DNA of 64,000 bases, from assembly GCF_055900595.2 (NCBI RefSeq), contig NZ_CM148325.1. One strand, 5' to 3'. The notes under the pieces are model-generated. The model was not told the DNA's origin and searched no databases. It saw only the letters and a list, made by a program, of their open reading frames with translations. Position 1 is the stretch's first letter. Every line of letters starts with the position of its first letter. Below are positions 20,363 through 53,519 of this stretch, piece after piece. Both the position numbers and the translations under genes were made by a program.

Positions 20363-20717
20363 CGTACCCCACGTGGTCTATAGCGTTTGCGATATGGCTA
20401 ACCAGCATCTGCCACTTGGTTATTCCGTAATCAGTCAGCATGCCATCATTGTTTAGCCACATATCAAATTCAGCGGTTGTCGCAAGTTTCCACTTATCGC
20501 CGTGGGCAGTCCTCATTGCTGGGTACATGAATGCGCAAATCAGATCACAAACATCTGACGGCTTCAGAGATGTAGTAATGATGCGTCCCTCTGGCGTCTG
20601 AATTGCCATTTTCTCTTCACCAGTAGAATGAAGGTTATGAATCCACACAGCACCAGCAATCTTTGCCACCTGCTCTCCGATTGCGGAGCTAAGCGCCATT
20701 TCTGCATTTTCACGCAT
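20346..20717 (-). CDS. Hypothetical protein
   Basis: 123-aa ORF in operon with primase. Confidence 0.45.
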   Translation of the reverse strand: MRENAEMALSSAIGEQVAKIAGAVWIHNLHSTGEEKMAIQTPEGRIITTSLKPSDVCDLICAFMYPAMRTAHGDKWKLATTAEFDMWLNNDGMLTDYGITKWQMLVSHIANAIDHVGYGDAKH

Positions 20718-21051
20718 GAGAACCTCCCGCTACAGTTGCGCCCATGTCATTAACCATGCTTTGCCATATCTCACGCCCGACGTCAGTCAATCCGTCCTTA
20801 GTGACGCAACGATCAAGAAGCTCGATCCCCACGGTTTCCCACTGCGGGTAGAACACTTTCATGGCTGCCAGTGTGTAGCTATCGATCAGGCTGCGAACGC
20901 CTTTTACTCCATTGACGATTTCCACACGGACGGCCTCGCCGTCCGCATCAACCATGAAATAGTCCCCGCCGCTGGTGGAGGTAATGTGGTTATACAGTGC
21001 CGACGCATACTTATTTGCCAGCGCATTCAGTCGGAAATTTTTAGTAATCAT
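20710..21051 (-). CDS. Hypothetical protein
   Basis: 113-aa ORF, 8-nt overlap with downstream gene. Confidence 0.45.
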   Translation of the reverse strand: MITKNFRLNALANKYASALYNHITSTSGGDYFMVDADGEAVRVEIVNGVKGVRSLIDSYTLAAMKVFYPQWETVGIELLDRCVTKDGLTDVGREIWQSMVNDMGATVAGGSHA

Positions 21052-21061
21052 GGTTCCATCC

Positions 21062-21664
21062 TCAGTGCGTCACTGGTTCCGCTGGCATGCCGTTTTCATT
21101 CAGTTCAGCTATAAAGCTGTTGTGAAGTTCAGCAAGCGTTTCACGACCAAATGGAGTCAGTGCTCCTTGTTCCACATCCATCATGGCTCTGTAGAAAATG
21201 ATGGCGCGTTCTGTGCCAGACTCGATGCCAAAACGTTCTATCATCGCGCCCTCAATGTTGTTTGCCATAGCGAGGCGCTCTGCTACTGGATACAGCGGCA
21301 TGGCGACGATGCCGTTGGAATAAACAGCCACTTCGGAAGGGTTGCCAGTATCATCAATGATGCTGACAGTGCCGTTTTCCTCTCTCATTTCCAGCATGAA
21401 TACTGTTGCGATCAGCCATCTCCACATAATGACGTTATGCTGTGATGTGTAATCGAAATATCCCTGGTTGCCGCCATCGGCTATAGCGAGATGTATTGAC
21501 ATACCTTCATCTGGTTTATCGTCATAATCCCCGGCATCCAGACGATTTACGGCATCAATATATGAGACGGCCTCAACGCGTTCTGTCATGCCATCGTTGC
21601 TGCGGTACATGATGTTTACGCCGTCAGGCGTTGCTTCTGCATGGAAAGTTAAGAAATTATTCAT
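21062..21664 (-). CDS. Hypothetical protein
   Basis: Start moved to internal ATG (MNNFLTF...) giving ATG/TGA overlap with upstream ORF. Confidence 0.5.
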   Translation of the reverse strand: MNNFLTFHAEATPDGVNIMYRSNDGMTERVEAVSYIDAVNRLDAGDYDDKPDEGMSIHLAIADGGNQGYFDYTSQHNVIMWRWLIATVFMLEMREENGTVSIIDDTGNPSEVAVYSNGIVAMPLYPVAERLAMANNIEGAMIERFGIESGTERAIIFYRAMMDVEQGALTPFGRETLAELHNSFIAELNENGMPAEPVTH

Positions 21665-21878
21665 GTTTCGCCTCGCCTGAATGATTCTGTAACTCATATT
21701 TGCCCAACAATTCGTCTGCTTCCTGAATAGCTTCTGGTACGCCATTGAGCAGTGACATAACCGCGCCAATCATTAACTTGTCTCTGTTGCTGGGGCTGGC
21801 CCCTTCAAGCCAGAACCCTAAAACAGTCTGAACCTGTTCGATGCGACATTGTGCTTCAATGAGCTGGATGTTGGTCAT
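21657..21878 (-). CDS. Hypothetical protein
   Basis: 73-aa ORF, overlapping start/stop chain. Confidence 0.4.
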   Translation of the reverse strand: MTNIQLIEAQCRIEQVQTVLGFWLEGASPSNRDKLMIGAVMSLLNGVPEAIQEADELLGKYELQNHSGEAKHE

Positions 21879-22138
21879 TTCGCACTCTCCGCATCGATTA
21901 AACTGATATCTATCAGAGAGGTAACTTTTTGTAGCCAGCTAGTGATTACTGTCGCCTGTTCCCCTCCCACCGATGGAAGAATCTCATTCATCACATGAAG
22001 CAGACCTGTGCGCGCCCTGGTAAGCCGTTCAGTCGTGCGATCTGCAAGAGTGAATGTGTCTGGATATGGCTCTTCACGGCTCAGCAATGATTCAATTTCC
22101 AGCTCACACGGATGACGATAAATTAAGTTGATATTCAT
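21875..22138 (-). CDS. Hypothetical protein
   Basis: 87-aa ORF, overlapping start/stop chain. Confidence 0.4.
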   Translation of the reverse strand: MNINLIYRHPCELEIESLLSREEPYPDTFTLADRTTERLTRARTGLLHVMNEILPSVGGEQATVITSWLQKVTSLIDISLIDAESAK

Positions 22139-22386
22139 TTTTCACCACCAAGAATTACCAGCTCTGCACGAGCATCGTTAACCAAAGATGAGCACGCTTT
22201 AATCGCATCCACGACATCAGCAGCGTCCATTTCTTCAGCCGAAAGACTGACAGCAACCAGGACAGCCGCTGCTTGCTCGATTAATTGAAGTGCGGACGTA
22301 AGTCGAGGGGCATTAATTGAGTTATTCATTGGTTGCCCCCGTTTTTCCTGGCATTTCGCCACCTTCCAGCAGGAAATGAACGTCAC
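22135..22386 (-). CDS. Hypothetical protein
   Basis: 83-aa ORF; true start may be internal. Confidence 0.35.
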   Translation of the reverse strand: MTFISCWKVAKCQEKRGQPMNNSINAPRLTSALQLIEQAAAVLVAVSLSAEEMDAADVVDAIKACSSLVNDARAELVILGGEK

Positions 22387-22540
22387 GAACGGCGAGATCC
22401 AATATCGCGAGTAACGCCTTCAGTCTTTCGTCTCGTGAGGGAGAGTTGCTCACCAGAATGTCGTTAATCACTTCTGTCAGTGTGATGATCTGGCTTGTGC
22501 GTTCGAGGGGATCCATATGCACATCGTAGGTTTTAATCAT
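22322..22540 (-). CDS. Hypothetical small protein
   Basis: C-terminal 72 aa of the long 355-aa track ORF; GGAGGTG RBS before ATG at 22540. Confidence 0.35.
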   Translation of the reverse strand: MIKTYDVHMDPLERTSQIITLTEVINDILVSNSPSRDERLKALLAILDLAVRDVHFLLEGGEMPGKTGATNE

Positions 22541-22874
22541 GTGCCACCTCCATGCGGATACGACCAGCAAAAAAGCAGACGTGATCGCGCACCAGAGAAC
22601 GGCGAGCATCGCGTTCAGACTCGGCAGCAATATGATGAATTTTGGCGGTAATTGTCGGGCAATCGCGGCGAACTGCGGCGATAATCCAGATAAATTGCGG
22701 TTTTTGGGTAGGGGTAGTAGCCAGCATGTGGCAGCCTCCTTGTACTGGGAATTCTTCCCACCACCGGAGCTGCGAAACTCGCTGGTGGTGGACTGAACAG
22801 AGTTCGCAGTACCGGCGTACAAGGAAACCGGCCAGCCTTTCGGCTGCCCTGTCCAGCCCACCATAATTTTGCAA
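22533..22874 (-). CDS. Hypothetical protein
   Basis: 113-aa ORF with ATG/TGA overlap at 22533-22540. Confidence 0.35.
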   Translation of the reverse strand: MQNYGGLDRAAERLAGFLVRRYCELCSVHHQRVSQLRWWEEFPVQGGCHMLATTPTQKPQFIWIIAAVRRDCPTITAKIHHIAAESERDARRSLVRDHVCFFAGRIRMEVAHD

Positions 22875-23385
22875 GCGACGCGGATTATAACCACATCACT
22901 GAAAAAAGTGTGAGTCTGGCTAACGGCACAAAAAAAGACGCTCGGCGCGTCATGTGTCGCCTCGTACATTTCCGGGCTGCGAAACCCGGCACCCGTTTTA
23001 TGAGGTGCCTTATAACCATAAACCGTGTTGCCGCATAACGGCAAGCTCTTTTTTATGGACTCCGAAAACTCACTATTGGAAGAACCAGAAGCACAGTACA
23101 TCGCGCTCATTTCGTTAACGTCACGCGCGTGGACGAATGTTTTTGTGGAGTCACTACACGAGCGGAAGACATCATCTACGACCAGAAATTTTCTGGCGCA
23201 GCCGCTGACCTTCTCAAGGCTAATATCATCGCCCGAGATTTCTGGTATGGTTAAGGCATCCGTTCCGGCCACCAGCAAATGATAAACTTTGCTTGTATCT
23301 GCTGTATTAATGCCTGACTTTGCCGTCATATTTCTGGATTTTGGCGACATACCAGCCAGTGAAAATGTCTTCTTCTGGATGGGTA

Positions 23386-23565
23386 TCATTGGTTAACCTC
23401 CGCGAACTCCTTCATGAAACGCGCCAGCGGTTGTACGCATGGCGATTGATACCCGTCGCGATAAAACGTCACTCGGTTGTGAGACACGCTTTCGACAGTA
23501 ACGAGTGCTCCGTGGGCATCTTTGTAGCGTTTTTGAGGTTGTGGTGTTCCTGTCGGCTTAAACAT
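23386..23565 (-). CDS. Small hypothetical protein
   Basis: 59-aa ORF from internal ATG overlapping antirepressor stop. Confidence 0.35.
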   Translation of the reverse strand: MFKPTGTPQPQKRYKDAHGALVTVESVSHNRVTFYRDGYQSPCVQPLARFMKEFAEVNQ

Positions 23566-24391
23566 GGACCGCCTCCAGACGCTTGGCGAGCCAGCGTTGC
23601 GACAGGCGGGTGAGTTCTCCTTTACGCTGCTCATATTCCATGCCCATATCAATTAACGTGATATTGGTGCTTTCGAGATATGAGAGGTGCTCAAGCTGTT
23701 CTGCGTTCATATGGTCGCGAGGTTCGCCAGAATAGCCATTTATCCGCGCCCACTGTTTAGCAGTTAGCCCACCAAGAACGATACGAGAAATCATATTGCT
23801 CTCGTTTGTGTAGTGGTGTTGCTGCGTCGTTTTACCCATCTCGGCACGGGCCATATTCAGCGCATCGCACATTGGCTTAAAGTTGTTTGCGGCACTGATA
23901 CGGGCTTTTAGCTGGCGACGATAGCGGGCGGCGATTTCAGGCACGCTACGCTGTAATTCTTCCTCGCACTGGATGAAATAACGGCGGATAGCGCGCCCCT
24001 GATCATTGCGTTCGATCATTGCCAGTTCTTTCGCCATTCCGACACTTAACAGATAGTCTTTGCCGGGTCTGCCAGACTGCTTAATCTTGCTGTAAGCCGC
24101 GTCATTCGGGCTTTTCCCCAAATTTGGGGAAATTGTTTTATGGACTGAGTAATCGTGCCCAATGGTGAAGTCATATTCAGAGATGCGATCAGTGATCCAT
24201 GTAGAGAAGTCTTTTCCCACGCCCAACGCTTTGTGTAACGCTTTTGCGCTAACAATATTGGTTTCACGCCCACCGATATGACCAGGAATAACCGGGACAA
24301 TTGCGGCAAATTCATTACCGTTAATTGTGCCCAGAGAGGCGTTCAGATGAGGGGCAGCCTCAGAAATTAATCTGCTTTTTTCGATGTTCAT
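23558..24391 (-). CDS. Phage antirepressor-like protein
   Basis: 277 aa; KALHKALGVGKDFSTWITDRI...LLSVGMAKELAMIERNDQGRAIRRYFIQCEE resembles AntA/KilAC-type antirepressors. Confidence 0.5.
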   Translation of the reverse strand: MNIEKSRLISEAAPHLNASLGTINGNEFAAIVPVIPGHIGGRETNIVSAKALHKALGVGKDFSTWITDRISEYDFTIGHDYSVHKTISPNLGKSPNDAAYSKIKQSGRPGKDYLLSVGMAKELAMIERNDQGRAIRRYFIQCEEELQRSVPEIAARYRRQLKARISAANNFKPMCDALNMARAEMGKTTQQHHYTNESNMISRIVLGGLTAKQWARINGYSGEPRDHMNAEQLEHLSYLESTNITLIDMGMEYEQRKGELTRLSQRWLAKRLEAVHV

Positions 24392-24403
24392 TTTCAGTCT
24401 CCG

Positions 24404-24835
24404 TTAGGCGGCGTTAAACGCGTCCGGGTAGAGTTTCAGAATGTCGGCAATTTCCTGCTGAGAAAGTCCGTTGTGATCATTTATGTTCGCAAGATGGTTA
24501 ACATGAGTGATCACTTTCAGAACATCACCACGGCAGGAGAAACGGTAGCGAAGGTGTGTTCCGATACCATCAGGATTCTTTTCGTCGATACGCTCCAGAG
24601 TGATTCCAAGCTGGCGTTCTAACTCTGTTGCATAGTTACGACCAGAAGACAGACGGCAGTAGCGAAGAATGTCATTTTCTGTCCATCCCTCTATACCAGT
24701 ACGCAGCATATAGACTCTGGCACGATGCTTTTTCGGTGTGCGCTTTGGTGCTTGAAGGGATTTTGTAAGGGGCGTAACATCAGATACACGAATATCTGAA
24801 TTAGCCGCCTGTAATGGGCGGTTTTTCTTTTCCAT
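24404..24835 (-). CDS. Hypothetical protein
   Basis: 143-aa ORF between antirepressor and alpA. Confidence 0.45.
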   Translation of the reverse strand: MEKKNRPLQAANSDIRVSDVTPLTKSLQAPKRTPKKHRARVYMLRTGIEGWTENDILRYCRLSSGRNYATELERQLGITLERIDEKNPDGIGTHLRYRFSCRGDVLKVITHVNHLANINDHNGLSQQEIADILKLYPDAFNAA

Positions 24836-25038
24836 CAGGCCACCTCGTCTCTAGATTCTAATATACACTTCTCAATCCATTCATCTATTTCAGACTCAAC
24901 AAAAGCAATTGCCCGACTTCCAATTTTTACCTGTTTAGGGAACCTCCCCTGACTAATAAGACGATAAATCCATGCTTTGCTATAACCAGTTCGCCTTTGA
25001 ACTTCAGAGAGACGAATTAATGAATTGTAATTAGCCAT
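24835..25038 (-). CDS. alpA: AlpA-family transcriptional regulator / excisionase-like
   Basis: 67 aa; LIRLSEVQRRTGYSKAWIYRLISQGRFPKQVKIGSRAIAFVESEIDEWI is the AlpA HTH pattern. Confidence 0.8.
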   Translation of the reverse strand: MANYNSLIRLSEVQRRTGYSKAWIYRLISQGRFPKQVKIGSRAIAFVESEIDEWIEKCILESRDEVA

Positions 25039-25466
25039 TTATTAATATCCTGTACTAATGACGCAATAACCCCCTCCTGCAACGAATGGCGAGAGTTTTA
25101 TTTGCGTCAAATGTCGAATACGCCAAAGACCACAATATGAAAAACATATTGCGGTCTTTTATAAAAGATAGTCAGATTGTTTTGGTTTGTTTGCTCCACA
25201 AGGGTAGAGCTACCCTGCATTTCGGCAGGATCACGCTATTAGGCGTGACATCCAGTAGTTTTAAAGAACAATTGCGCTTTGTCAGCGCCAAAGCCTGTTA
25301 AAGAACATTCCGCTTTGTCAGCGACGTAGAAGGCTCAATACACCTTCGTTTATAAAAGAGCGATTGCCCTTCTCCAGGGCTAACTGTTAAATAGCAATCC
25401 TCTGTGAGTTTTTATCAATCTACTCCCCTATACTTTAGTAAACCTCTGTATACTTGTCCAGTTGTT

Positions 25467-26681
25467 TCATGCGTGTTTTTCAAACACCATATGCACCACA
25501 TTTCCGCCATGCTCGAGAGAATCCATATAGTCGGCATACCATTGAAGCATCTCCCGCCTTCCATCCAGATATTGCGCATGGTTGTATGTGCCACGAATTG
25601 AGTTCTTATCAACGTGAGCGAGCTGCGTTTCTATCCACGCGGTGTTATAGCCCTGCTCATGCAAAATCGTACTCATAGTGTGCCGGAACCCATGACCAGT
25701 TACACGTCCAGCGTAGCCAATGCGCTTAAACACTTGGTTTATGCTGGCCTCGCTCATTGTTTTCCTTGGATCATTGCGCCCGGGAAACATAAGAGGGTAA
25801 TTGCCTGTTATTTCTCTAATCTTCCCAATAAGCGAAAGAGCCTGCTCAGACAATGGCACAATATGAGGCCGCCGCATTTTCATACGTGAAGCGGGTATCT
25901 CCCAGATAGCCTTGTTGAAATCAATTTCATCCCATAATGCGCCACGTAGTTCGCCAGTCCGCAAGCCGGTGATAATCAGTAGACGAGCCGCCATAACAAC
26001 CAATGCGCTTCCTGAGTAACTGGACAATGCCTTGAAAAAATCAGGTAATTCTTTGGCTGTAAGGAAAGGGTAATGATTAGATTCATGGCCTTGCATCGCG
26101 CTAGTAAGGTCTGGTGCAGGGTTATACTCTGCGCGACCAGTGACTATTGCATAGCGGAAAACTTCCCCGCACCGTTGCCTCACTTTTTTGGCTTTTTCTG
26201 TAGCACCGCGCCCCTCGATGCGACGCAGCACATTCAGAAGTTCAAGTGGTTTGATTTCGGCGATGGGTTTTTTGCCAATGTAAGGGAACACATCTTTGTT
26301 GAAGGCTTCGAGGATGTCTGAAGCATAACCAGCAGACCATTTTTTTAATTTGCTGCTGTGCCACTCAAGGGCAATATCTTTGAAGGTGTTGTTTAACTGC
26401 GTTTCCCGGGCAATCTTTTCCTCTCGTTTCGCTTCCATCGGATCGATACCACCAGCGATACCTCTTTTCGCATCTTCACGTTTTGCCCGAGCATCGGCTA
26501 GAGTAACCTCAGGATAAACACCTAGTGCCAATAGCTTCTCTTTACCAGCTACACGATATTTAAGTCGCCAGTATTTACCTCCATTAGGTTTTACCAAGAG
26601 ATACAAACCGCCACCATCGGCCAGCTTGTAAGCCTTCTCTTTTGGCTTGGCTGTGTCTATTTGACGGGCATTGAGTTTCAC
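25467..26681 (-). CDS. P4-type tyrosine integrase
   Basis: 404 aa; MKLNARQIDTAKPKEK... N-terminus, C-terminal HGFRHT...H..Y catalytic region; adjacent to tRNA. Confidence 0.9.
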   Translation of the reverse strand: MKLNARQIDTAKPKEKAYKLADGGGLYLLVKPNGGKYWRLKYRVAGKEKLLALGVYPEVTLADARAKREDAKRGIAGGIDPMEAKREEKIARETQLNNTFKDIALEWHSSKLKKWSAGYASDILEAFNKDVFPYIGKKPIAEIKPLELLNVLRRIEGRGATEKAKKVRQRCGEVFRYAIVTGRAEYNPAPDLTSAMQGHESNHYPFLTAKELPDFFKALSSYSGSALVVMAARLLIITGLRTGELRGALWDEIDFNKAIWEIPASRMKMRRPHIVPLSEQALSLIGKIREITGNYPLMFPGRNDPRKTMSEASINQVFKRIGYAGRVTGHGFRHTMSTILHEQGYNTAWIETQLAHVDKNSIRGTYNHAQYLDGRREMLQWYADYMDSLEHGGNVVHMVFEKHA

Positions 26682-26713
26682 TTGGGGGTACCTCCACTAA
26701 ACCGAACAGCAAA

Positions 26714-26734
26714 TACCCCCATAAGTACCCCCAT
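26714..26734 (+). repeat. TACCCCCATAAGTACCCCCAT motif in int promoter/attL region
   Basis: Second copy of motif at 6207-6227. Confidence 0.4.
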
Positions 26735-26846
26735 CTGACCGTAGATTTTGAGGGACTTTAGTAGACGTCAAAAGACGAACGGGGCTTTAATACGCGGATT
26801 ATAAGGGGTTTTGAAAGACTTTAGTAGACTTGGGGAGATGTTTGAA

Positions 26847-32581: not shown

Positions 32582-33040
32582 TTAGCGCCCGGAGATTGGC
32601 GGGACGAATACGACGCCCATATCCCACGGTTGTTCAATCCAGGTATCTTGTGGGATATCAACAACATAATCATCAACCAGCGGACGACCTGCCGGTTTAG
32701 CGAAGATGGTGACAAAGTGCGCTTTTGGATACATTTCACGAATCGCAACCGCAGTACCGCCGGTATCCACCAGATCATCAATAACGATGAAGCCTTCGCC
32801 ATCGCCTTCTGCGCGTTTCAGCACTTTAAGCTCGCGCTGGTTGTCGTGATCGTAGCTGGAAATACAAACGGTATCGACATGACGAATACCCAGTTCACGC
32901 GCCAGTAACGCACCCGGTACCAGACCGCCACGGCTTACGGCAATAATGCCTTTCCATTGTTCAGAAGGCATCAGTCGGCTTGCGAGTTTACGTGCATGGA
33001 TCTGCAACATGTCCCAGGTGACGATGTATTTTTCGCTCAT
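32582..33040 (-). CDS. gpt: Xanthine-guanine phosphoribosyltransferase
   Basis: 152-aa translation [23 protein letters not shown]... Confidence 0.95.
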
Positions 33041-33300
33041 GTGAAGTGTCCCAGCCTGTTTATCTACGGCTTAAAAAGTGTTCGAGGGGAAAATAGGTTG
33101 CGCGAGATTATAGAGATCTGACGCACTAAAAACCAGTATTTCACATGAGTCCGCGTCTTTTTACGCACAGCCTCTCCCTGACGCGGGATAAAGTGGTATT
33201 CTCAAACATATCTCGCAAGCCTGTCTTGTGTTGACAACATTTTCTGCTAACCCTGTGACCTGCAATACTGTTTTGCGGGTGATCGACAAGGAGACTTAAC

Positions 33301-34758
33301 GTGTCTGAACTGTCTCAATTATCTCCACAGCCGCTGTGGGATATTTTTGCCAAAATCTGTTCTATTCCTCACCCGTCCTATCATGAAGAGCAACTCGCTG
33401 AATACATTGTTGGTTGGGCAAAAGAGAAAGGTTTCCATGTCGAACGCGATCAGGTGGGTAATATCCTGATTCGTAAACCTGCTACCGCAGGTATGGAAAA
33501 TCGTAAACCAGTCGTCTTGCAGGCCCACCTCGATATGGTGCCGCAGAAAAATAACGATACCGTGCACGATTTCACTAAAGATCCTATCCAGCCTTATATT
33601 GATGGCGAATGGGTTAAAGCGCGCGGTACCACGCTGGGTGCGGATAACGGCATTGGTATGGCCTCTGCACTGGCGGTTCTGGCTGACGAAAACGTGGTTC
33701 ACGGCCCGCTGGAAGTGCTGCTAACCATGACCGAAGAAGCCGGTATGGACGGGGCGTTCGGCTTACAGAGCAACTGGTTGCAGGCTGACATTCTGATTAA
33801 CACCGACTCCGAAGAAGAAGGTGAAATCTACATGGGTTGTGCTGGGGGTATCGACTTCACCTCCAACCTGCATTTAGATCGTGAAGCGGTTCCAGCTGGT
33901 TTTGAAACCTTCAAGTTAACCTTAAAAGGTCTGAAAGGCGGTCACTCCGGCGGTGAAATCCACGTTGGCCTGGGTAATGCCAACAAACTGCTGGTGCGCT
34001 TCCTGGCGGGTCATGCGGAAGAGCTGGACCTGCGCCTTATCGATTTCAACGGTGGCACACTGCGTAACGCCATCCCGCGTGAAGCCTTTGCGACCATCGC
34101 TGTCGCAGCTGATAAAGTCGACGCCCTGAAAACGCTGGTGAATACCTATCAGGAGATCCTGAAAAACGAGCTGGCAGAGAAAGAGAAAAATCTGGCATTG
34201 CTGCTGGACTCTGTTGCGAACGATAAAGCTGCCCTGATTGCGAAATCTCGCGATACCTTTATTCGTCTGCTGAACGCCACCCCGAACGGTGTGATCCGCA
34301 ACTCCGACGTGGCAAAAGGCGTGGTTGAAACCTCACTGAACGTCGGTGTCGTGACCATGACCGACAACAACGTAGAAATTCACTGCCTGATCCGTTCTCT
34401 GATCGACAGCGGTAAAGACTACGTGGTGAGCATGCTGGATTCGCTGGGTAAACTGGCAGGCGCGAAAACCGAAGCGAAAGGCGCATATCCTGGCTGGCAG
34501 CCGGACGCTAACTCTCCGGTGATGCATCTGGTACGTGAAACCTATCAGCGTCTGTTCAACAAGACGCCGAACATCCAGATTATTCACGCGGGTCTGGAAT
34601 GTGGCCTGTTTAAAAAGCCGTATCCGGAAATGGACATGGTTTCTATCGGGCCAACCATCACCGGTCCACACTCTCCGGATGAGCAAGTTCACATCGAAAG
34701 CGTAGGCCATTACTGGACACTGCTGACAGAACTGCTGAAAGAAATTCCGGCGAAGTAA
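33301..34758 (+). CDS. pepD: Cytosol non-specific dipeptidase (aminoacyl-histidine dipeptidase)
   Basis: 485 aa, GTG start, MSELSQLSPQPLWDIFAKICSIPHPSYHEE... Confidence 0.95.
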   Translation: MSELSQLSPQPLWDIFAKICSIPHPSYHEEQLAEYIVGWAKEKGFHVERDQVGNILIRKPATAGMENRKPVVLQAHLDMVPQKNNDTVHDFTKDPIQPYIDGEWVKARGTTLGADNGIGMASALAVLADENVVHGPLEVLLTMTEEAGMDGAFGLQSNWLQADILINTDSEEEGEIYMGCAGGIDFTSNLHLDREAVPAGFETFKLTLKGLKGGHSGGEIHVGLGNANKLLVRFLAGHAEELDLRLIDFNGGTLRNAIPREAFATIAVAADKVDALKTLVNTYQEILKNELAEKEKNLALLLDSVANDKAALIAKSRDTFIRLLNATPNGVIRNSDVAKGVVETSLNVGVVTMTDNNVEIHCLIRSLIDSGKDYVVSMLDSLGKLAGAKTEAKGAYPGWQPDANSPVMHLVRETYQRLFNKTPNIQIIHAGLECGLFKKPYPEMDMVSIGPTITGPHSPDEQVHIESVGHYWTLLTELLKEIPAK

Positions 34759-34814
34759 TTTTTTGATTTGCTGCCGGATGGCGTTTGATCGCCTTCCGGC
34801 AGTTTCATCCTTTC

Positions 34815-35429
34815 TTATCCTTCGATAAAAGCCATCCCTGTAAACGTCCGTCGCGGGTTGCCACGTTCAATCTGGTGATGGAACATTCGCCGCTGCGATT
34901 TCAGCGCCGCGCTATTTTCCTGTTGCTGTTGCTCCAGCTTCCAGGCAATCAGCAATCGCGCCAGCCGTTTGTTGGCATGTTGGCTGCGCTCTGACTGAAC
35001 CTTCACGCTAATCCCGGATGCCAGATGCGTGGCGCGTACCGCCGAGTCGGTTTTATTGACATGTTGACCGCCCGGCCCCGACGAACGCAGCGTCTCATAA
35101 TGGATCGCATCGGATTGCTCCTGCTCATCTGCAGTAAAACGCCCAATGCCCAGAAACCAGTTTTTGCGCCCATGATGAGGGCGATACGGACTCGGACAAA
35201 TCCACTGGATAGTGCCACACCAGCTTTCGCTTAGTGCCCATGCGTTGTCGCCATCAAGTGAAACCAGCGCCGAACGCAGTGTGTCAGAGTAGCGACCCGT
35301 TTCTGTTTCCAGCACCGTTACCGCGACGTCTTGTCGGGCAGCTTCTTTAATCAGCCTGTCCAGTGCCTTTTTCACTGCGAGACAACATTCTTCCGGCCCC
35401 TGAGCTGAGGAGAGTTGTAGCAAGATCAT
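34815..35429 (-). CDS. prfH: Peptide chain release factor homolog PrfH (apparently intact)
   Basis: GGQ motif [10 protein letters not shown]; start MILLQL... overlaps upstream RtcB stop (ATGA). Confidence 0.85.
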
Positions 35430-36565
35430 CCTTTTTTCCCTCCACTGTTTTTGAGCGTCAGCACCGGACGCAGTCGCGCGACAGGAATAATTAAACCGGC
35501 CTGCACCAGACATTGCACCACACTTTCAGCCGATTTATAGGCTTGTGGCGCTTCTTCAAAGATGAGTTGTTTATCGCGACAAATTACCCGACTGCCAAGT
35601 TCAGTACGTGAGAGTTGCGTCGCCGTGTATTTCGCTGCCAGACGCCCTTTACACTCGGTGCGCCCCCATTTACGCCCTGCCCCATGCGCCAGTGAGTGAA
35701 GCGTTTTTTCGTTCGCAACAGGTTTAACCAGCCAGGAGTAATCACCGCGTGAACCGGGAATAATCACCAGACCGTTGTCATCCGGCGTAGCCCCTTTACG
35801 GTGTAACCATCCTTGTTGATCGCCGATTCGACATGCGCTAACAAAGTTATGCGCCACATCCAGAACCGAATTTCCGTTGGCCTTAACTTGTTGCATTATG
35901 CGCAAAGCGATCAGCTGGCGATTAATACGCGCAAACGCCAGCGCATCATCATGTTCCGCAATATAACTTAGCGCGTCGTCACTGCCTTCCGGCAAACCAT
36001 GATGCGAAAACGAGGCAATATGCCGCTGTAAAATAGACTGCCCTAAACCACGCGAGCCGCTATGGACCAGCAGTTGCAGATGCTGCGCATCCAGACCTGA
36101 CAGTGCAAACAGTTCCGCGTCGATGATTTGATCAATCTGTTGCAGTTCTGCAAAGTGGTTACCGCCACCGATAGAGCCAAGCGCGCAGCGCCACGGATGC
36201 TGTGCAAACGCTGACGGCAGGTTTTCCTCCAGCCAGCTTTCTTCAGCAACGTCATCCAGCGCAGATAATCGCTTTTCAAACTTATCGGCGTTGTATTTAC
36301 GCGCGAGAATATCTGTTTGCCATAGCGCCATACCGCAGCCGATATCATTGCCGACCAGTGCCGGGTAAAAACGGCCTACGGAGAAGAACGCTGCGCCAAT
36401 CGGATAGCCGCGTCCGGGGTGCAAATCTGGCATCCCCACTACGCGCTGCATGTTGGGTAAATTTGCCGTGGTGTGTAATTGTTGGATCGCTGAACTCTCG
36501 ATCCACAGGTCATCAGATGCGATGGTAAATACCGCATCGGATAAGGGACGAATATATTTGCCCAT
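35426..36565 (-). CDS. RtcB-family RNA ligase homolog (prfH partner)
   Basis: 379 aa; position immediately upstream of prfH; RtcB-like GGNHFAE region. Confidence 0.75.
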
Positions 36566-36810
36566 GTATCATTCCATTTATACTCGTCATACTTCAAGTT
36601 GCATGTACTGCGACTCGAATTATTTAGAGTATATAAATATAAAAATCAGGAAATGGCAGACGAATCCAGGGCAAGAAAAAAAGAATTAATCCTGGAAAGG
36701 TCTGCAAAGAGTCATTGATAAAGGATTTTTCATGATTTACCTCCTTGCAGTTTGTGGAATAAGAAAACGCGCACATATTAGGCGGGCGTTATTTTCATTG
36801 CAAGCTGGAT

Positions 36811-37263
36811 TTAATGTTGCGGTTTATATCGCATATGAAAATTAGTAAACCACGCTCCCCGGCATTCAACGCGTTGCTGCTTAACTGTCTGAAAACCATA
36901 ACGTTCAAAAAAGGGTTTTGCGGTTATGCTGGCGTCCACCGTAAGTTCGGATTCAGACTTAATCAAAGGTTTTAACAAAGCGCTGGCAACCCCACGGCGA
37001 GTATATTCAGGGTCAACAAATAACATATCGATATAATGTTCAATGCGGGAAATAAAACCAACCGGTTGTGCATTAATCACAGCAACTCGCACTTGTGATT
37101 TCGCGAGTTGCTCTTTCCAGCGAGATTCGTCAATCTGCGCCCAGGCGGCAATTTGTTGTGGTGAATAATGCTGACTGGCGGTCATCGTAACCGCTCTAAT
37201 GAAAATAGCGCATAGTTGCTGAAAATCGCAAGGCTGATAGTTTCTTATTTGTATGTTATTCAT
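36811..37263 (-). CDS. yafP: GNAT-family acetyltransferase YafP
   Basis: 150 aa, overlaps dinB stop; yafN-yafO not present between dinB and yafP. Confidence 0.85.
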
Positions 37264-38315
37264 AATCCCAGCACCAGTTGTCTTTCCATTTGCGGATCCA
37301 GCAACGTCACATGCAGCCCCACCAGCCGCACACCGCGCCCGCCACGGCGTTCATCCCAGGTTTTACGCGCAGTGGCGATCAAGTCAGCTTTATTCAGCCG
37401 CGGCCAGACGTGTTCCTGGGTGGTTTGCTGAAAATCGTCGAACTTTAATTTCACCCCCTGGCGGGCAATCAGTAAATCAGGTTTTACCTTTGCCAGACGA
37501 CGTTCAAGTTCCGGGTACAACCGCTCGATGATCGCTTCACATTCAGACCAGTGATGAATATCTTCCGCCATGGTGCGTTCTACACCGACGGATTTTCGCA
37601 ACCTTTCGCTGTTAACGTCGCGCTCGTCAATGCCCTGGCTACGCTCCCACAAAATGCGGCCAAATTTGCCAAAGCGTTTAAGCAACGTCACCAGATCACA
37701 CTTTTGTACATCGCCACAGGTTCGTAGCCCCATCGCTTCCAGTTTTGCCGCCGAGACTTTGCCGACACCGGGAATTTTTGCCAGCGGTAAGGTTTGCAGA
37801 AATGCCGGAACTTCTGCCGGCGTAATCACAAACTGACCGTTGGGTTTATTCATGTCTGAGGCGATTTTGGCGAGAAACTTGACCGGCGCAACGCCCGCAG
37901 ACGCCGTCAGTTGCAGCTCGTTGAAGATCGTCTGGCGGATTTCCTGAGCGATAAGGGTCGCAGAGCCGTGGCAATGGACACTATCGGTGACGTCGAGATA
38001 GGCTTCATCCAGTGACAGCGGCTCAATACGCGATGTGTAGCGAGAGAAGATTTCGCGGATATGATTTGACGCTTCTTTGTAGGCGTCAAAGCGCCCTGGA
38101 AGCAAGGTGAGATGCGGACACAGTTTGAGCGCCATGCCGGTTGGCATTGCGCTACGCACGCCAAATTTACGCGCGGGATAATTGGCGGTGCTGATCACCC
38201 CCCGGCGTTCGCGGCTGCCGCCAATAGCAATAGGGATATCGCGCAGGGCGGGATTGTCGCGCATCTCCACCGCGGCGAAAAAGCAGTCCATATCCACATG
38301 AATGATTTTACGCAT
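37260..38315 (-). CDS. dinB: DNA polymerase IV
   Basis: 351 aa [33 protein letters not shown]... Confidence 0.95.
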
Positions 38316-38385
38316 TGCTCACCTCTCAATACTGGTAAAGTATACAGTGATTTCAGAGTTTGAGAAAAGCGTAAAGATTCAGCAT

Positions 38386-39170
38386 TTAACGCGTTCGCTG
38401 CGAAAGCACCTGCTGCTTATCCAGCTTTTTCACCAGCGGCTGCACCACCTTATCCCCATGCTGACCAAAATATTGATACAACGTATCGGACGCGCTTTTG
38501 GTGAGCACCATAATCTCAATGCGCCGGTTACCCGCGCTTTGTGGGTTTTTGGCATCCAGCAGCATCTGGTCCGCCATCGCGCTTACCTGCATCACTTTAT
38601 CTTCCGGCATCCCGGCGTCTTCCAGCACCCGACGGGCCGAGAGCGCGCGGTCACCCGAAAGGTTCCAGTTGTTGTAGATATTGCTTTTATAGGCCATCGC
38701 ATCGGTATGCCCGGTAATAATAATTTTGTTGTCGAGCGAGTCGAATACCGGCGCGAGTTCCACCAGCAGCGTTTTAAAGAACGGCATAATCTTCGCGCTG
38801 CCGCGTTCAAACATATTGCGGTTCTGGTCATCTTTAATCAGCACGCGTAATCCCTGCGGGACAATCTCCATCTCCAGATTGGCTTCCATATGCGCATCGC
38901 GGGCGATGGTGTTGATACTGGTCGCCAGCTCGCCAAGCTCAGTGGCAGACTTCTTCTTCACTAGCGCCGTTTTCTCGTTGACGTCGCGGGCTTTTTTCTC
39001 CGTCTCTTCCGGCACCGCCACGGTGGCAGGTTTCGGCGGATGCGTCGGGCTGATTTTATTTAACGGCGACAGCCCGCCGCCATTGAAAATCGACTGCCCG
39101 TGCAGCGCGGCGATAATGCTTTCACGCTCAGATTTACTAACACTGTTGACAATCAACTTTATTGTCGTCA
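38386..39170 (-). pseudogene. lafU: Flag-2 MotB-like protein LafU, 5'-truncated remnant (approximate boundary)
   Basis: OmpA/MotB C-terminal domain ITGHTDAMAYKSNIYNNWNLSGDRALSARRVL...; N-terminal region overlaps lfhA fragment. Confidence 0.65.
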
Positions 39171-40857: not shown

Positions 40858-40990
<133 letters not shown>

Positions 40991-41000
40991 AACCTGCGCG

Positions 41001-42981
<1,981 letters not shown>

Positions 42982-43106
42982 AAATCGCGGAAGGGATGAA
43001 ACAACAGCGCCTGACGGCGCTGTGTCTGGCATGCCTGCAATCCGGGAGACTGGACCAGGAAAAAACTTGCAGGCCGTAACAGTATCTACTGTTAAAGCAC
43101 AGATTT

Positions 43107-43247
<141 letters not shown>

Positions 43248-43926: not shown

Positions 43927-44680
43927 AAATCGTCTCTTCTGTCAAAATCCTGCGCGCGCCCAAAAAGTGATCCTGCCAGAAAGGTTCAGCTAACCGACTT
44001 ACCCGAATGGTTTCCCCGGTGCGCGGCGACTCGATAAACTGACCGTCTCCCAGATACACGCCCATATGGTCGGCAATCTCGCGGCTGTGAATATGGAAAA
44101 ACAGCAAATCTCCCCGGCGCAGGTCGTTATTTGCCACAATGGTTGCCCGACGGTAGTGATACATCTCATTGGCCGTGCGCGGGAGTTTCGCCTCGAGGAT
44201 CTTGTTGTAGGCATAAAAAACCAACCCGCTACAGTCGAAGCCTTGATCGGGTCGCGTGCCACCCCAGACGTATGGCTTGCCAAGCTGCTGCTCCAGACGG
44301 TGAATCGCCACTTCGGTGATATTATGCAGGTGGTTACTGCTGAGGAAATGATTGTTTTCCGCCAGCGCCTGCCAGCGTCTGTCACTCGCCTTGAGCGGCG
44401 CAGGAAACCATTCTGGATGCTGTTTTATCTGTTCGCGGTTGTGTTGCCGCAGTGCCCTTCTGCTTTCAGCATTGCCTTCCACAATATAGCTGGCCTGCTT
44501 TTTCAGATGAATTTGGTACTGTTTTAATAAACGCGCACGGTTTTGCATCCGCTGGCGGGCGGCGTAGCTGAAAGAGATATGTGATGTGGTGGCGCTGGCG
44601 AGTAAAGGGAGCAAAACGCATAACGAAAACACGCCTGGATGCAGAAATCTGCCGAGCAAGAACGAAGACATGAAGGACAT
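43922..44680 (-). CDS. yafL: NlpC/P60-family peptidase YafL
   Basis: Signal peptide plus Cys-containing DCSGLVFYAYNKIL motif. Confidence 0.85.
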   Translation of the reverse strand: MSFMSSFLLGRFLHPGVFSLCVLLPLLASATTSHISFSYAARQRMQNRARLLKQYQIHLKKQASYIVEGNAESRRALRQHNREQIKQHPEWFPAPLKASDRRWQALAENNHFLSSNHLHNITEVAIHRLEQQLGKPYVWGGTRPDQGFDCSGLVFYAYNKILEAKLPRTANEMYHYRRATIVANNDLRRGDLLFFHIHSREIADHMGVYLGDGQFIESPRTGETIRVSRLAEPFWQDHFLGARRILTEETIL

Positions 44681-44971
44681 AAACCGGCTGAATGAAGGTG
44701 AGAATTTTAAAAGACCGGAGGAGTAAACGGGATTATTAATTGCTTATTTGCATATTACTATTGAGGTTTCATAATCTTAGGAAATAAATGATACATGCGC
44801 TTTTCGGACTAATGAAAACTGCCCTTGTGCTAAATTTGTAAACCCTGCGCCGACAGGCTTGCGTAAAACTCTTTTGGTGATAATGTGAGCCTTCCAAATC
44901 CAGACTATTCCGATTTGGGATCCATTTTGCCGTCCTGGCGTGTGTAACCGTTTTATCAAGGAATAAGCAGT

Positions 44972-47473: not shown

Positions 47474-49918
47474 ATGATGATTTTGAGTATTCTCGCTACG
47501 GTTGTCCTGCTCGGCGCGTTGTTCTATCACCGCGTGAGCTTATTTATCAGCAGTCTGATTTTGCTCGCCTGGACAGCCGCCCTCGGCGTCGCTGGTCTGT
47601 GGTCGGCGTGGGTACTGGTGCCTCTGGCCATTATCCTCGTACCGTTTAACTTTGCGCCTATGCGTAAGTCGATGATTTCTGCGCCGGTATTTCGTGGATT
47701 CCGTAAGGTGATGCCACCGATGTCACGCACTGAAAAAGAAGCGATTGATGCAGGCACTACCTGGTGGGAAGGCGACTTGTTCCAGGGTAAGCCGGACTGG
47801 AAAAAGCTGCATAACTATCCGCAGCCGCGCCTGACCGCAGAAGAGCAAGCGTTTCTCGACGGCCCGGTAGAAGAAGCCTGCCGGATGGCGAATGATTTCC
47901 AGATTACTCATGAGCTGGCGGATCTGCCGCCGGAGTTGTGGGCGTACCTTAAAGAGCATCGTTTCTTCGCGATGATTATCAAAAAAGAGTACGGCGGGCT
48001 GGAGTTCTCGGCTTATGCCCAGTCTCGTGTGCTGCAAAAACTCTCCGGCGTGAGCGGGATCCTGGCGATTACCGTCGGCGTGCCGAACTCATTAGGCCCG
48101 GGCGAGCTGCTGCAACATTACGGCACTGATGAGCAGAAAGATCACTATCTGCCGCGTCTGGCGCGTGGTCAGGAAATCCCTTGCTTTGCACTGACCAGCC
48201 CGGAAGCGGGTTCCGATGCGGGCGCTATCCCGGATACCGGGATTGTCTGCATGGGCGAGTGGCAGGGCCAGCAGGTGCTGGGGATGCGACTGACCTGGAA
48301 CAAACGCTACATTACGCTCGCGCCAATTGCGACCGTGCTTGGGCTGGCGTTTAAACTTTCCGACCCGGAAAAACTGCTGGGTGGCGCAGAAGATTTAGGC
48401 ATTACCTGTGCACTTATCCCGACCACCACGCCAGGCGTGGAAATTGGTCGTCGCCACTTCCCGCTGAACGTACCGTTCCAGAACGGACCGACGCGAGGTA
48501 AAGATGTCTTCGTACCGATCGACTACATTATCGGCGGACCAAAAATGGCCGGGCAAGGCTGGCGGATGCTGGTGGAGTGTCTCTCCGTGGGCCGCGGCAT
48601 CACCCTACCTTCCAACTCAACCGGCGGCGTGAAATCGGTAGCACTGGCAACGGGCGCGTATGCGCACATTCGCCGTCAGTTCAAAATCTCTATCGGTAAG
48701 ATGGAAGGGATTGAAGAGCCGCTGGCGCGTATTGCCGGTAATGCCTACGTGATGGATGCTGCGGCATCGCTGATTACCTACGGAATTATGCTCGGTGAAA
48801 AACCTGCCGTGCTGTCGGCTATCGTTAAGTATCATTGTACCCACCGTGGGCAGCAGTCGATTATTGATGCGATGGATATCACCGGGGGTAAAGGCATTAT
48901 GCTCGGTCAGAGCAACTTCCTGGCACGAGCTTACCAGGGCGCACCGATTGCCATCACCGTTGAAGGGGCCAACATTCTGACCCGCAGCATGATGATCTTC
49001 GGTCAGGGAGCGATTCGTTGCCATCCGTACGTGCTGGAAGAGATGGAAGCGGCGAAGAACAATGACGTTAACGCGTTCGATAAACTGCTGTTCAAACATA
49101 TTGGCCACGTCGGCAGTAACAAAGTTCGCAGCTTCTGGCTGGGCCTGACGCGCGGTTTAACCAGCAGCACACCAACCGGCGATGCCACTAAACGTTATTA
49201 TCAGCACCTGAACCGCCTGAGTGCCAACCTCGCCCTGCTTTCTGATGTCTCGATGGCTGTGCTGGGCGGCAGCCTGAAACGTCGTGAGCGTATCTCGGCA
49301 CGTCTGGGGGATATTTTAAGCCAGCTTTACCTCGCCTCTGCCGTTCTGAAGCGTTATGACGACGAAGGCCGTAATGAAGCCGATCTGCCGCTGGTGCACT
49401 GGGGCGTACAGGATGCGCTGTATCAGGCTGAACAGGCGATGGATGATTTACTGCAAAACTTCCCGAACCGCGTGGTTGCCGGGCTGCTGAATGTGGTGAT
49501 CTTCCCGACCGGACGTCATTATCTGGCACCGTCTGACAAGCTGGATCATAAGGTGGCGAAGATTTTACAAGTGCCGAACGCCACCCGTTCACGTATTGGT
49601 CGCGGTCAGTACCTGACCCCGAGCGAGCATAACCCGGTTGGTTTACTGGAAGAGGCGCTGGTGGATGTGATTGCCGCCGACCCAATTCATCAGCGGATCT
49701 GTAAAGAGCTGGGTAAAAACCTGCCGTTTACCCGTCTGGATGAACTGGCGCATAACGCGCTGGCGAAGGGGCTGATTGATAAAGATGAAGCCGCTATTCT
49801 TGTGAAAGCTGAAGAGAGTCGTCTGCGCAGTATTAACGTTGATGACTTTGATCCGGAAGAGCTGGCGACGAAGCCGGTAAAGTTGCCGGAGAAAGTGCGG
49901 AAAGTTGAAGCCGCATAA
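47474..49918 (+). CDS. fadE: Acyl-CoA dehydrogenase FadE
   Basis: Start set at [21 protein letters not shown] (814 aa). Confidence 0.95.
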
Positions 49919-53268: not shown

Positions 53269-53313
53269 TGTCAGTTCCCTATTGGATTCAGTATAGAATC
53301 ATTAAGCACAGTT

Positions 53314-53511: not shown

Positions 53512-53519
53512 ATCTCCTC

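Follow-up and report, generated by a model that had tools for sequence, protein, structure and literature searches.

The stretch analysed here (the window, 64,000 nucleotides of contig NZ_CM148325.1) is 100% identical to the chromosome of E. coli Z0117EC0005 (NZ_CP098223.1). The part discussed below carries dinB, yafP, rtcB2 and prfH, minus strand throughout, with the following features:

34815 to 35429, minus strand: prfH, peptide chain release factor H (204 amino acids, GGQ at residues 120–122, without RF domain 1)
35339 to 36358, minus strand: segment of 1,020 bp that K-12, O157:H7 and roughly half of E. coli have lost by deletion, placed by alignment to K-12
35426 to 35429, minus strand: ATGA overlap of the rtcB2 stop codon (TGA) and the prfH start codon (ATG), read from the sequence and pointing to translational coupling
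35426 to 36565, minus strand: rtcB2, RtcB-family RNA ligase of the PrfH-linked subfamily (379 amino acids)
36811 to 37263, minus strand: yafP, GNAT N-acetyltransferase (150 amino acids; 321.9 bits against NF007338, cutoff 146; Pfam Acetyltransf_10)
37260 to 37263, minus strand: ATGA in which the dinB stop codon overlaps the yafP start codon; K-12 carries its yafN-yafO cassette at this site
37260 to 38315, minus strand: dinB, DNA polymerase IV (351 amino acids; 547 bits against NF002677, cutoff 256)
38332 to 38347, minus strand: LexA-box-like sequence CTGTATACTTTACCAG upstream of dinB

The product of prfH scores 327.9 bits against TIGR03072, far above the curated equivalog cutoff of 166.65, with residues 2–201 of the 204 covered, so that the first-pass annotation was right to call the gene full length with a GGQ motif. 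The protein aligns with EcPrfH of PDB 7SA4 over 204/204 residues with four substitutions (200/204 identical), the GGQ peptidyl-tRNA hydrolysis motif region being identical in the two, and its residues 6–189 align with residues 115–308 of RF2, the first ~115 residues of which have no counterpart. A longer reading frame of 232 amino acids, starting at 35513, was rejected as an in-frame upstream extension into rtcB, since both the profile and PDB 7SA4 fit the 204-amino-acid start at 35429. The ATGA overlap at 35426–35429, a feature already noted for the rtcB-prfH operon family (PMC1586002), agrees with the earlier claim that prfH is coupled to an RtcB homolog.

RtcB2 scores 642.1 bits against NF007153 (cutoff 407) and 622.9 bits against TIGR03073 (cutoff 271.8). 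Its motifs NDIGC (D74, C77), GGGNHF (H137), VHSGSRG (H168), AHNF (H239) and AHGAGR (H294) are intact, and align with GYDINCG, GSGNHF, VHTGSRG, VAHN and CHGAGR of the RtcB structures from P. horikoshii and T. thermophilus. Following established structural knowledge of RtcB, we take D74, C77, H137, H168, H239 and H294 to be the metal-binding and guanylylation residues. The rtcB2-prfH allele in the window is a rare one, which shares 93–95% DNA identity with almost every other copy in E. coli, and its RtcB2 differs from the characterised B2-type allele at 10–13 of the 379 residues and from the B1/A alleles at 19–21. Compared with other E. coli alleles, dN/dS is 0.08–0.14 for rtcB2 and, against four such alleles, 0.02–0.05 for prfH.

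Alignment shows that K-12 is arranged differently and that its two genes are not intact: a deletion of 1,020 bp fuses rtcB' to 'prfH, and the missing segment comprises the C-terminal 310 codons of rtcB and the first 30 codons of prfH. The prfH pseudogene that the first-pass annotation ascribed to K-12 is thus real, and consists of an N-terminally truncated prfH (b0236) beside a truncated rtcB (ykfJ, b0235), both annotated as pseudogenes; the deletion was described by Baranov et al. 2006 (PMC1586002). The junction lies at an imperfect microhomology (CCCGGCA/CCCGACA) and is identical in 3/3 deletion alleles examined. The ykfJ/prfH locus of K-12 resembles the window in having yafP upstream, pepD downstream and a leader element (described below) upstream, but differs from it by a 72-bp ERIC-like insertion in the spacer between the leader and rtcB. 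The order dinB-(yafP)-rtcB-prfH-pepD-gpt-frsA is found in nine other enteric loci, from two species of Klebsiella, two of Citrobacter, and from Salmonella, Kosakonia, Cronobacter, Enterobacter and Superficieibacter. This conservation of gene order identifies K-12 as the degenerate state: rtcB-prfH is ancestral backbone, and K-12 is derived and damaged. A scan of genome contigs for PrfH gave, among the matches listed, two close enteric loci only and no other Escherichia species; most of the matches listed were 29–55% identical and are presumably ordinary release factors found through the GGQ-region pattern.

At the other junction, yafP begins at the dinB stop (ATGA, 37260–37263), as the first-pass annotation had stated, and K-12 has both yafN and yafO between the two genes. 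In the alignment the K-12 insert is a stretch of 752 bp without counterpart in the window, lying between ATTATGA repeats, and a BLAST search with these 752 bp found no match anywhere in the 64-kb window. DinB of the window differs from that of K-12 by one amino acid despite 6% nucleotide divergence. The box upstream of dinB resembles CTG-N10-CAG, the LexA consensus, and dinB belongs to the SOS genes. A two-gene dinB-yafP operon was described in CFT073 and in roughly half the ECOR strains by Gutierrez et al. 2011 (PMC3105422), who also reported the dinB operon to be SOS-controlled. The window shares with that operon the ATGA overlap, the lack of yafN-yafO and the LexA box upstream of dinB, and departs from the B2 allele by ~6% sequence divergence with no structural difference; what the window carries is the SOS-controlled dinB operon in its two-gene form.

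Among 5,426 complete E. coli genomes, the rtcB/prfH segment is kept in 2,674 (49%), yafNO is present in 2,831, and dinB joins yafP directly in 2,569 (47%). These counts bring the 2006 and 2011 frequency figures up to date, and they bear out the earlier strain-level picture of module presence and absence, each state occurring in about half of the genomes. Combinations of the modules were counted in a systematic sample of 59 genomes, in which the state of the window, intact rtcB/prfH without yafNO, is the commonest (~25/59, ~43%). The K-12-type deletion together with yafNO was found in 22 genomes and intact rtcB/prfH together with yafNO in four, while an additional 166-bp deletion in prfH was found in seven, on both yafNO backgrounds. 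The rtcB/prfH deletion occurs with and without the yafNO cassette. Gene integrity, family membership, retention of the catalytic motifs, purifying selection, indel boundaries, frequencies and synteny are established for the locus, and the stretch is almost certainly ordinary E. coli chromosomal backbone with common alleles of two well-known presence/absence polymorphisms. Both differences from K-12 are already published, the deletion in 2006 and the dinB-yafP fusion in 2011, as is the repair function (2022).

The finding that complete rtcB-prfH genes are present in only about half of E. coli genomes, together with the sporadic distribution of the operon across bacteria (PMC1586002) and the unusual divergence of its alleles (93–95% between lineages), could suggest a horizontally acquired accessory island that was gained by Z0117EC0005 rather than lost from K-12. 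However, the rtcB2-prfH alleles are no more divergent than the flanking core genes (dinB 94% identity; B1 vs. B2 ~96%), the same dinB-to-pepD position and gene order are kept in the nine other enteric loci, and K-12 retains both gene ends around a clean internal deletion junction. Given the common deletion junction, the K-12 remnants and the kept synteny, we reject acquisition of an island, to which we attach practically no probability, and retain loss from K-12. It might also be argued that the reading frames in the window are open but already decaying and non-functional, as half of the species is without the operon, the rtcB initiation region has undergone a G to A change in this lineage (GGAATGA instead of GGAATGG), and an IS1 sits in rtcB of a sister strain of the same lineage. 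The IS1 indicates that the operon is dispensable and repeatedly lost. Nevertheless, the low dN/dS of both genes, the intact GGQ and catalytic motifs, the HMM scores far over the equivalog cutoffs and the intact leader upstream make such decay in the window lineage very improbable, and favour a functional operon.

The absence of yafN-yafO could be a secondary deletion, by recombination between the ATTATGA repeats, rather than an ancestral empty site, and to this we would give an even chance. A four-gene operon in E. fergusonii and the inference of at least three losses (PMC3105422) speak for deletion, and the 7-bp direct repeat around the K-12 cassette would permit its precise excision; on the other hand, yafNO is absent from 9/9 non-Escherichia enteric loci, dinB is followed directly by yafP in Klebsiella and C. 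farmeri, and the identical junction in every two-gene strain, the divergent lineage of the window among them, fits equally well a never-occupied site that was spread or retained by recombination.

For the biochemistry of the operon, the closest known system is that of strain ATCC 25922. EcPrfH acts on 70S ribosomes in which colicin E3 or CdiA-CT toxins have cleaved the 16S rRNA between A1493 and G1494. With its GGQ motif it frees the nascent peptide, which allows the ribosome to be dismantled, and the ATCC 25922 protein releases peptide only on ribosomes cut at this site (PMC9304027); EcRtcB2 religates the cut 16S rRNA in 30S subunits, and not tRNA (PMC9304027, PMC13166195). The EcRtcB2-EcPrfH system of ATCC 25922 (PDB 7SA4; PMC9304027, PMC9223846, PMC13166195) and the window have the same genes, site, ATGA coupling and motifs, and the PrfH proteins are 98% identical, whereas RtcB2 of the window is the product of a different, rare allele with 10–21 substitutions. 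From the literature on the ATCC 25922 proteins we infer a similar ribosome repair in Z0117EC0005, in which the GGQ of PrfH would free the nascent peptide from the cut ribosome, the ribosome would be dismantled, and its 30S subunit would then have the 16S rRNA religated by RtcB2. One deletion of 1,020 bp, between short near-repeats, cost K-12 this function. As a reference for the rtcB-prfH locus K-12 is poor, and by the same analogy Z0117EC0005 is probably more resistant than K-12 to colicin E3 and ribotoxins of the CdiA type. As findings of gene content, the intact operon and the absent yafNO are correct but ordinary, and of little consequence.

A separate observation concerns the spacer between yafP and rtcB, which carries a very strongly conserved 15-codon uORF and alternative RNA helices. 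Its features are:

36563 to 36575, minus strand: rtcB2 translation-initiation region GGAATGATACATG; in the RNAalifold consensus its proposed partner is CCATTTCC with segment 3 (36649–36661)
36650 to 36800, minus strand: conserved leader element, with promoter-like TTGCAA (36798–36803) and TAATAT (36775–36780), the uORF and the helix segments
36656 to 36705, minus strand: hairpin H2/H3, GCAGAC (36700–36705) with GTCTGC (36656–36661) and CCAGG (36691–36695) with CCTGG (36666–36670)
36686 to 36733, minus strand: unannotated 15-codon uORF MKNPLSMTLCRPFQD, with the SD AAGGAGG at 36740–36746; it begins MT in other E. coli
36702 to 36750, minus strand: alternative helix H1, in which the SD region CTGCAAGGAG (36741–36750) pairs with CTCTTTGCAG (36702–36711) in the RNAalifold consensus

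The leader element is 97.4–100% identical in 5,387 of the 5,426 genomes, compared with 93–96% for the flanking coding sequence. The MG1655 annotation has no feature at the element, Rfam has no match to it, and an Rfam scan of 34700–38500 returned one sub-threshold snoRNA match only, which we take as chance; a literature search for a leader of E. coli rtcB2-prfH found none, and the E. coli RtcB2-PrfH work that it did find makes no mention of one. Every gammaproteobacterial rtcB2-prfH locus that was inspected has a uORF at the equivalent position, as do two betaproteobacterial loci, and the E. coli uORF persists in K-12 (NC_000913.3, 253239–253286). The synonymous positions of its conserved codons are frozen, while its N-terminal codons vary freely. 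A 50-amino-acid ORF across the spacer (36624–36776) was rejected, as a one-base change in a T-run puts it out of frame in B2 strains, and in B1 it has a different 3' end. In a consensus scan for promoters and terminators, sites were no commoner than in shuffles, and none on the gene strand lay between yafP and rtcB; nor was a terminator-like site found on the minus strand at 36566–36810. A U-rich tract begins 8–12 nt past the H2 stem.

The last codons of the uORF form the 5' arm of H2/H3, with the stop codon in the loop. The H2/H3 duplex has an energy of −21.5 kcal/mol (z = −4.4 to −6.1 vs. shuffles in enterics) and its positions are 98.5% paired in a set of 12 enteric sequences; Pragia shows one compensatory change (GCAGGC/GCCTGC), and Pseudoalteromonas has a counterpart (GCAGGTC/GACCTGC). 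The H1 duplex (z = −2.4 to −3.5 vs. shuffles) shares bases with H2, and both are conserved; most of H2 can form alongside a shifted H1 in E. coli. Covariation in the leader helices is not significant, shuffles having matched the observed value in 161/500 and 79/500 cases, because the helices hardly vary among enterics. When folding was constrained so as to imitate a ribosome sitting on the start or the stop of the uORF, H1 switched to H2, as expected; in the same folding the rtcB start was not clearly opened, because other weak partners arose. Between segment 3 and the rtcB start region, the modelled pairing is no better than in shuffles (z = −0.4 to −1.1) and is a weakly supported hypothesis.

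Judged from sequence, the E. coli uORF is homologous to the PA5471.1 leader peptide of P. aeruginosa. Both the E. coli peptide, M(K/T)NPLSMTLCRPFQD, and the P. aeruginosa peptide, MIQFSTLCRLRLA, contain (S/T)LCR, and the P. aeruginosa copy has the Q3 and F4 published for PA5471.1. The two leaders share the RNA motif CCUUUGCAG(G/A)C with its downstream partner G(U/C)CUGCC, as well as the surrounding GCAAAGGAGG...CCUUUGCAGG...GUCUGCC motifs; each is a short uORF with a strong SD upstream of an RtcB-like gene, the PA5471.1 and enteric loci have almost the same rtcB start context, AUGGAUUGG..AUGGGC, and intermediates between the two occur in Pragia and Pseudomonas sp. PDM18. They differ in the length of the uORF (15 codons in enterics, 13 in PA5471.1) and of the spacer to rtcB (60–120 nt vs. 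~212 nt), and the enteric spacer has no evident intrinsic terminator, unlike the PA5471.1 attenuator, whose terminator hairpin (segments 3:4) ends transcription once the uORF has been translated in full; the output may therefore be translational rather than transcriptional. This lack of a terminator weakens the case for an identical mechanism, though not the case for homology. We know of no MexZ-like repressor bound by E. coli RtcB2. According to Morita et al. 2009, as reviewed in PMC3516279, PMC12057347 and PMC13041342, PA5471.1 leads the armZ (PA5471)-PA5470 operon, and experiments have shown that it controls this orthologous operon in P. aeruginosa. A report cited in PMC3516279 has K-12 ykfJ induced by 4-azaleucine.

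The 150-bp element may instead have no regulatory role for rtcB2-prfH, being a small-protein gene in its own right, the 3' UTR or terminator of yafP/dinB, or a small RNA. Its identity of 97–100% even where rtcB-prfH is deleted would fit such a role, as would the non-significant covariation and the chance-level pairing with the rtcB start. Yet the element travels with rtcB rather than yafP: genera that have no yafP carry it immediately upstream of rtcB, and so do Pragia, Pseudomonas and Pseudoalteromonas, where the neighbour is neither dinB nor yafP. Along with its homology to an experimentally proven regulator and the frozen synonymous positions in the conserved uORF codons, this leads us to regard a role unconnected with rtcB2-prfH as rather unlikely. 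We lean, by a little over an even chance, towards 36650–36800 being the enterobacterial ortholog of the PA5471.1 leader that induces rtcB2-prfH on ribosome damage.

By analogy with PA5471.1, the probable role of the leader uORF is to sense ribosome stalling and to control the operon. In vitro toeprinting has found ribosomes cut by colicin E3 to accumulate at start codons (PMC13166195). In the mechanism that we propose, the uORF would be constitutively transcribed, its last codons providing one arm of a strong hairpin, and ribosomes able to initiate but unable to elongate would occupy the uORF start. This occupancy would free segment 2 from the helix that pairs with the SD, the RNA would re-pair, and rtcB2-prfH would be switched on, so that the repair operon would be induced by the very damage that it repairs. 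The leader left in K-12 would then be a surviving orphan sensor.

If true, the side observation on the leader would matter more than the finding on gene content. Control of rtcB2-prfH by the uORF would explain how ribosome repair is switched on upon ribosome damage, and would tie the work on E. coli RtcB2-PrfH to the separate literature on ArmZ/MexXY induction in P. aeruginosa. It would also mean that nearly every E. coli strain carries a natural reporter of ribosome stalling.

The chromosome of E. coli Z0117EC0005 (NZ_CP098223.1; dog, South Korea) matches the window at 100% identity, and its RefSeq annotation is consistent with our independent gene reading.

Arrangement of the dinB-prfH region (window positions)
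38332-38347, upstream of dinB: LexA-box-like CTGTATACTTTACCAG
37260-38315, minus strand: dinB
37260-37263, minus strand: ATGA shared by the dinB stop and yafP start
36811-37263, minus strand: yafP
245 bp between yafP and rtcB: spacer
36686-36733, minus strand: 15-codon upstream ORF (uORF), MKNPLSMTLCRPFQD, with strong Shine-Dalgarno AAGGAGG in front
35426-36565, minus strand: rtcB
35426-35429, minus strand: ATGA shared by the rtcB stop and prfH start
34815-35429, minus strand: prfH
next after prfH, plus strand, convergent: pepD

The products of dinB, yafP, rtcB (rtcB2, the PrfH-linked RNA ligase gene) and prfH (peptide chain release factor H) all score above curated NCBIfam equivalog cutoffs (4/4). 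In agreement with the first-pass annotation, prfH is full length (204 residues, GGQ at 120-122) and coupled to an RtcB homolog through the ATGA at 35426-35429, and yafP begins at the dinB stop without yafN-yafO (yafNO, a toxin-antitoxin cassette). A 232-aa prfH ORF was rejected as merely an in-frame extension upstream of the 204-residue protein. PrfH has only four differences (K20R, A31T, V65I, H110R) from the protein in PDB 7SA4, the structure of PrfH from ATCC 25922 on a damaged ribosome. RtcB2 keeps all motifs that align to residues involved in metal binding and guanylylation in solved RtcB structures. Nucleotide identity to phylogroup A, B1 and B2 alleles is only 94-96%, while dN/dS against them is 0.02-0.05 for prfH, 0.08-0.14 for rtcB and about 0.01 for dinB, indicating purifying selection. 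Since B1 and B2 differ from each other about as much, the locus is generally diverse across E. coli. A PrfH scan of genome contigs gave no Escherichia locus among the matches listed, which were mostly distant and presumably ordinary release factors.

The function of rtcB2-prfH in this strain would be that published for other strains. Colicin E3 and CdiA-CT(ECL) cleave 16S rRNA between A1493 and G1494; PrfH releases peptide on such damaged 70S ribosomes only, after which RtcB2 rejoins the cut rRNA within the 30S subunit; it leaves tRNA unrepaired (PMC9304027). RtcB2 alone can perform the repair, which PrfH speeds (PMC13166195). Gene deletion in ATCC 25922 confers colicin E3 sensitivity, and K-12 BW25113 is sensitive already, because its operon is truncated (PMC9223846).

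K-12 has only a prfH pseudogene, as the first-pass annotation stated: in AG100 and MG1655, prfH (b0236) lacks its N-terminus, rtcB is reduced to a 5' fragment (ykfJ, b0235), and yafN and yafO separate dinB from yafP. The proposed alignment to K-12 gave a differing arrangement, with a 1,020-bp deletion in K-12 (window 35339-36358) bounded by the near-repeats CCCGGCA/CCCGACA, and a 752-bp yafNO cassette with a 7-bp direct repeat, ATTATGA, at both ends, of which the window retains a single copy. The K-12 yafP-rtcB spacer also carries a 72-bp insertion, between leader and rtcB, that matches 21/22 bases of each of the two standard ERIC primers. Searching the whole 64-kb window with K-12 yafNO, dinJ-yafQ and the 72-bp insert gave no match. 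The dinJ-yafQ toxin-antitoxin pair, between yafL and dpaA in K-12, is a second such module absent here, replaced by a spacer of ~230 bp (44672-44971).

Other differences lie elsewhere in the window. The stretch from the FlhA remnant of the lateral-flagella scar to rayT contains a cluster of insertion-sequence material (40911-43126) in place of the 45 bp of K-12: one IS3-family element is complete, and an IS110 element and a further transposase are present as fragments. A small island at about 20450-26830, after proA and adjoining tRNA-Thr, encodes a hypothetical protein of 1,069 aa and the toxin-antitoxin pair AbiEi/AbiEii, besides part of an integrase; in K-12 the CP4-6 prophage occupies this site. 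In the dnaQ-yafV interval (about 52860-53610), tRNA-Asp has as neighbours a fragment of ISAs1 and a type VI secretion gene of the ImpA family, which is truncated.

Both states are common in E. coli, and the strain-level picture of presence and absence held, each state occurring in roughly half of the 5,426 complete genomes.

Frequency of locus states (5,426 complete E. coli genomes; combinations in 59 informative genomes, taken at even intervals down the ranked matches of a 3.5-kb query)
K-12-deleted segment present (at least 80% coverage): 2,674/5,426 (49%)
yafNO present: 2,831/5,426 (52%)
uninterrupted dinB-yafP junction: 2,569/5,426 (47%)
intact rtcB-prfH, yafNO absent (the window's state; including ST131, O111): about 25/59
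intact rtcB-prfH with yafNO: 4/59
K-12-type deletion with yafNO (including O157:H7): 22/59
K-12-type deletion and second 166-bp prfH deletion, yafNO absent: 3/59
K-12-type deletion and second 166-bp prfH deletion, with yafNO: 4/59
sister strain, IS1 in rtcB: 1/59

The window's arrangement is the commonest single one in the species. Its sequence is rare: at least 99% identity was found in only 8 of the 5,426 genomes at either test region (33000-39000, this locus; 47474-49918, fadE), the next best match being 98.6% and most about 95-96.5%, so that Z0117EC0005 is a member of a rare lineage. The 1,020-bp junction is identical in the 3/3 deletion alleles aligned, which points to one ancestral deletion, later moved to different backgrounds by recombination. 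The second deletion in the prfH remnant (window 34980-35145; ~12% of sampled genomes, in addition to the K-12-type deletion) occurs with and without yafNO, indicating recombination between these closely linked markers. Sister strain 100117 (Gambia), of the same rare lineage, carries IS1A in rtcB (locus L008, the sister-strain locus, 2216-2985), with window 36422-36430 aligning to both flanks; the insertion is an independent inactivation of the operon.

The order dinB-(yafP)-rtcB-prfH-pepD-gpt-frsA is kept in the Klebsiella michiganensis group, K. aerogenes, Citrobacter farmeri, Citrobacter sp. FP75, Salmonella, Kosakonia, Cronobacter, Enterobacter and Superficieibacter, and rtcB-prfH is therefore old enteric backbone, of which the K-12 form is degenerate. 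Repeated yafNO loss was inferred from four genes in E. fergusonii (PMC3105422). yafNO occurs in 0/9 enteric loci inspected outside Escherichia, and yafP directly follows dinB in Klebsiella and C. farmeri; going by these nine outgroup loci, the empty dinB-yafP site may predate the presence of yafNO. The dinB-yafP pair is a two-gene, SOS-controlled form of the dinB operon, and its ATGA fusion was reported in 40-50% of strains (PMC3105422, Gutierrez et al., 2011); rtcB/prfH is uninterrupted in CFT073, 042 and UTI89, with a deletion of ~1,000 nt in MG1655, W3110 and O157:H7 (PMC1586002, Baranov et al., 2006). As both were already published, the difference from K-12 is correct, ordinary and already known.

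In 5,387 of the 5,426 genomes, rtcB-deleted ones included, the first ~150 bp past the yafP stop (36650-36800, the leader) show 97.4-100% identity, whereas the flanking genes diverge by 4-7%. Its uORF corresponds to MG1655 253239-253286, which has no annotated feature, and the leader has no Rfam match. A 13-15-codon ORF occupies the equivalent place in every gammaproteobacterial rtcB2-prfH locus inspected (three E. coli lineages, nine enteric loci, Pragia, two Pseudomonas and Pseudoalteromonas), and a 19-codon ORF in Massilia and Paucibacter; the leader goes with rtcB irrespective of the upstream gene. Enteric uORF peptides end in [LI]-C-R-x-x-Q-[DE], with a freely variable N-terminal half and conserved codons frozen even at synonymous positions. 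The leader-rtcB spacer (window 36566-36640; 8589-8654 in L002, the K-12 locus) measures 60-72 nt in B2 E. coli and in enterics other than E. coli; in the window and the majority of remaining E. coli it is longer by about 56 nt, which fold into a hairpin, and K-12 has its 72-bp insertion there as well.

The P. aeruginosa uORF is MIQFSTLCRLRLA, its Gln3 and Phe4 agreeing with the published description of the leader peptide PA5471.1. Three RNA motifs, GCAAAGGAGG, CCUUUGCAG(G/A)C and G(U/C)CUGCC, recur from Pseudomonas to E. coli, as does the rtcB start context AUGGAUUGG..AUGGGC. We therefore consider homology of the E. coli uORF to PA5471.1 well supported. The uORF runs into a strong predicted hairpin, H2/H3 (-21.5 kcal/mol; z = -4 to -6), its final codons making up the 5' arm, and in the alternative helix H1 the H2 bases pair with the uORF's own Shine-Dalgarno region (z about -3). 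Compensatory helix changes occur in Pragia and Pseudoalteromonas; covariation within enterics is not significant, because the helices hardly vary there. The RNAalifold consensus also pairs segment 3 (36649-36661) with the rtcB start region, at an energy not better than chance, and scanning the yafP-rtcB spacer revealed no evident terminator.

Three papers describe ribosome stalling as acting through PA5471.1 to turn on armZ (RtcB-like) and PA5470 (prfH) (PMC3516279, PMC12057347, PMC13041342), and one of them cites a single report of K-12 ykfJ induction by 4-azaleucine (PMC3516279). By homology, we infer that the leader would regulate rtcB2-prfH and respond to stalled ribosomes. Our search of the E. 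coli RtcB2-PrfH literature, including PMC13166195, found no description of a leader for these genes, and the leader is the sole part of the locus that a specialist might follow up.
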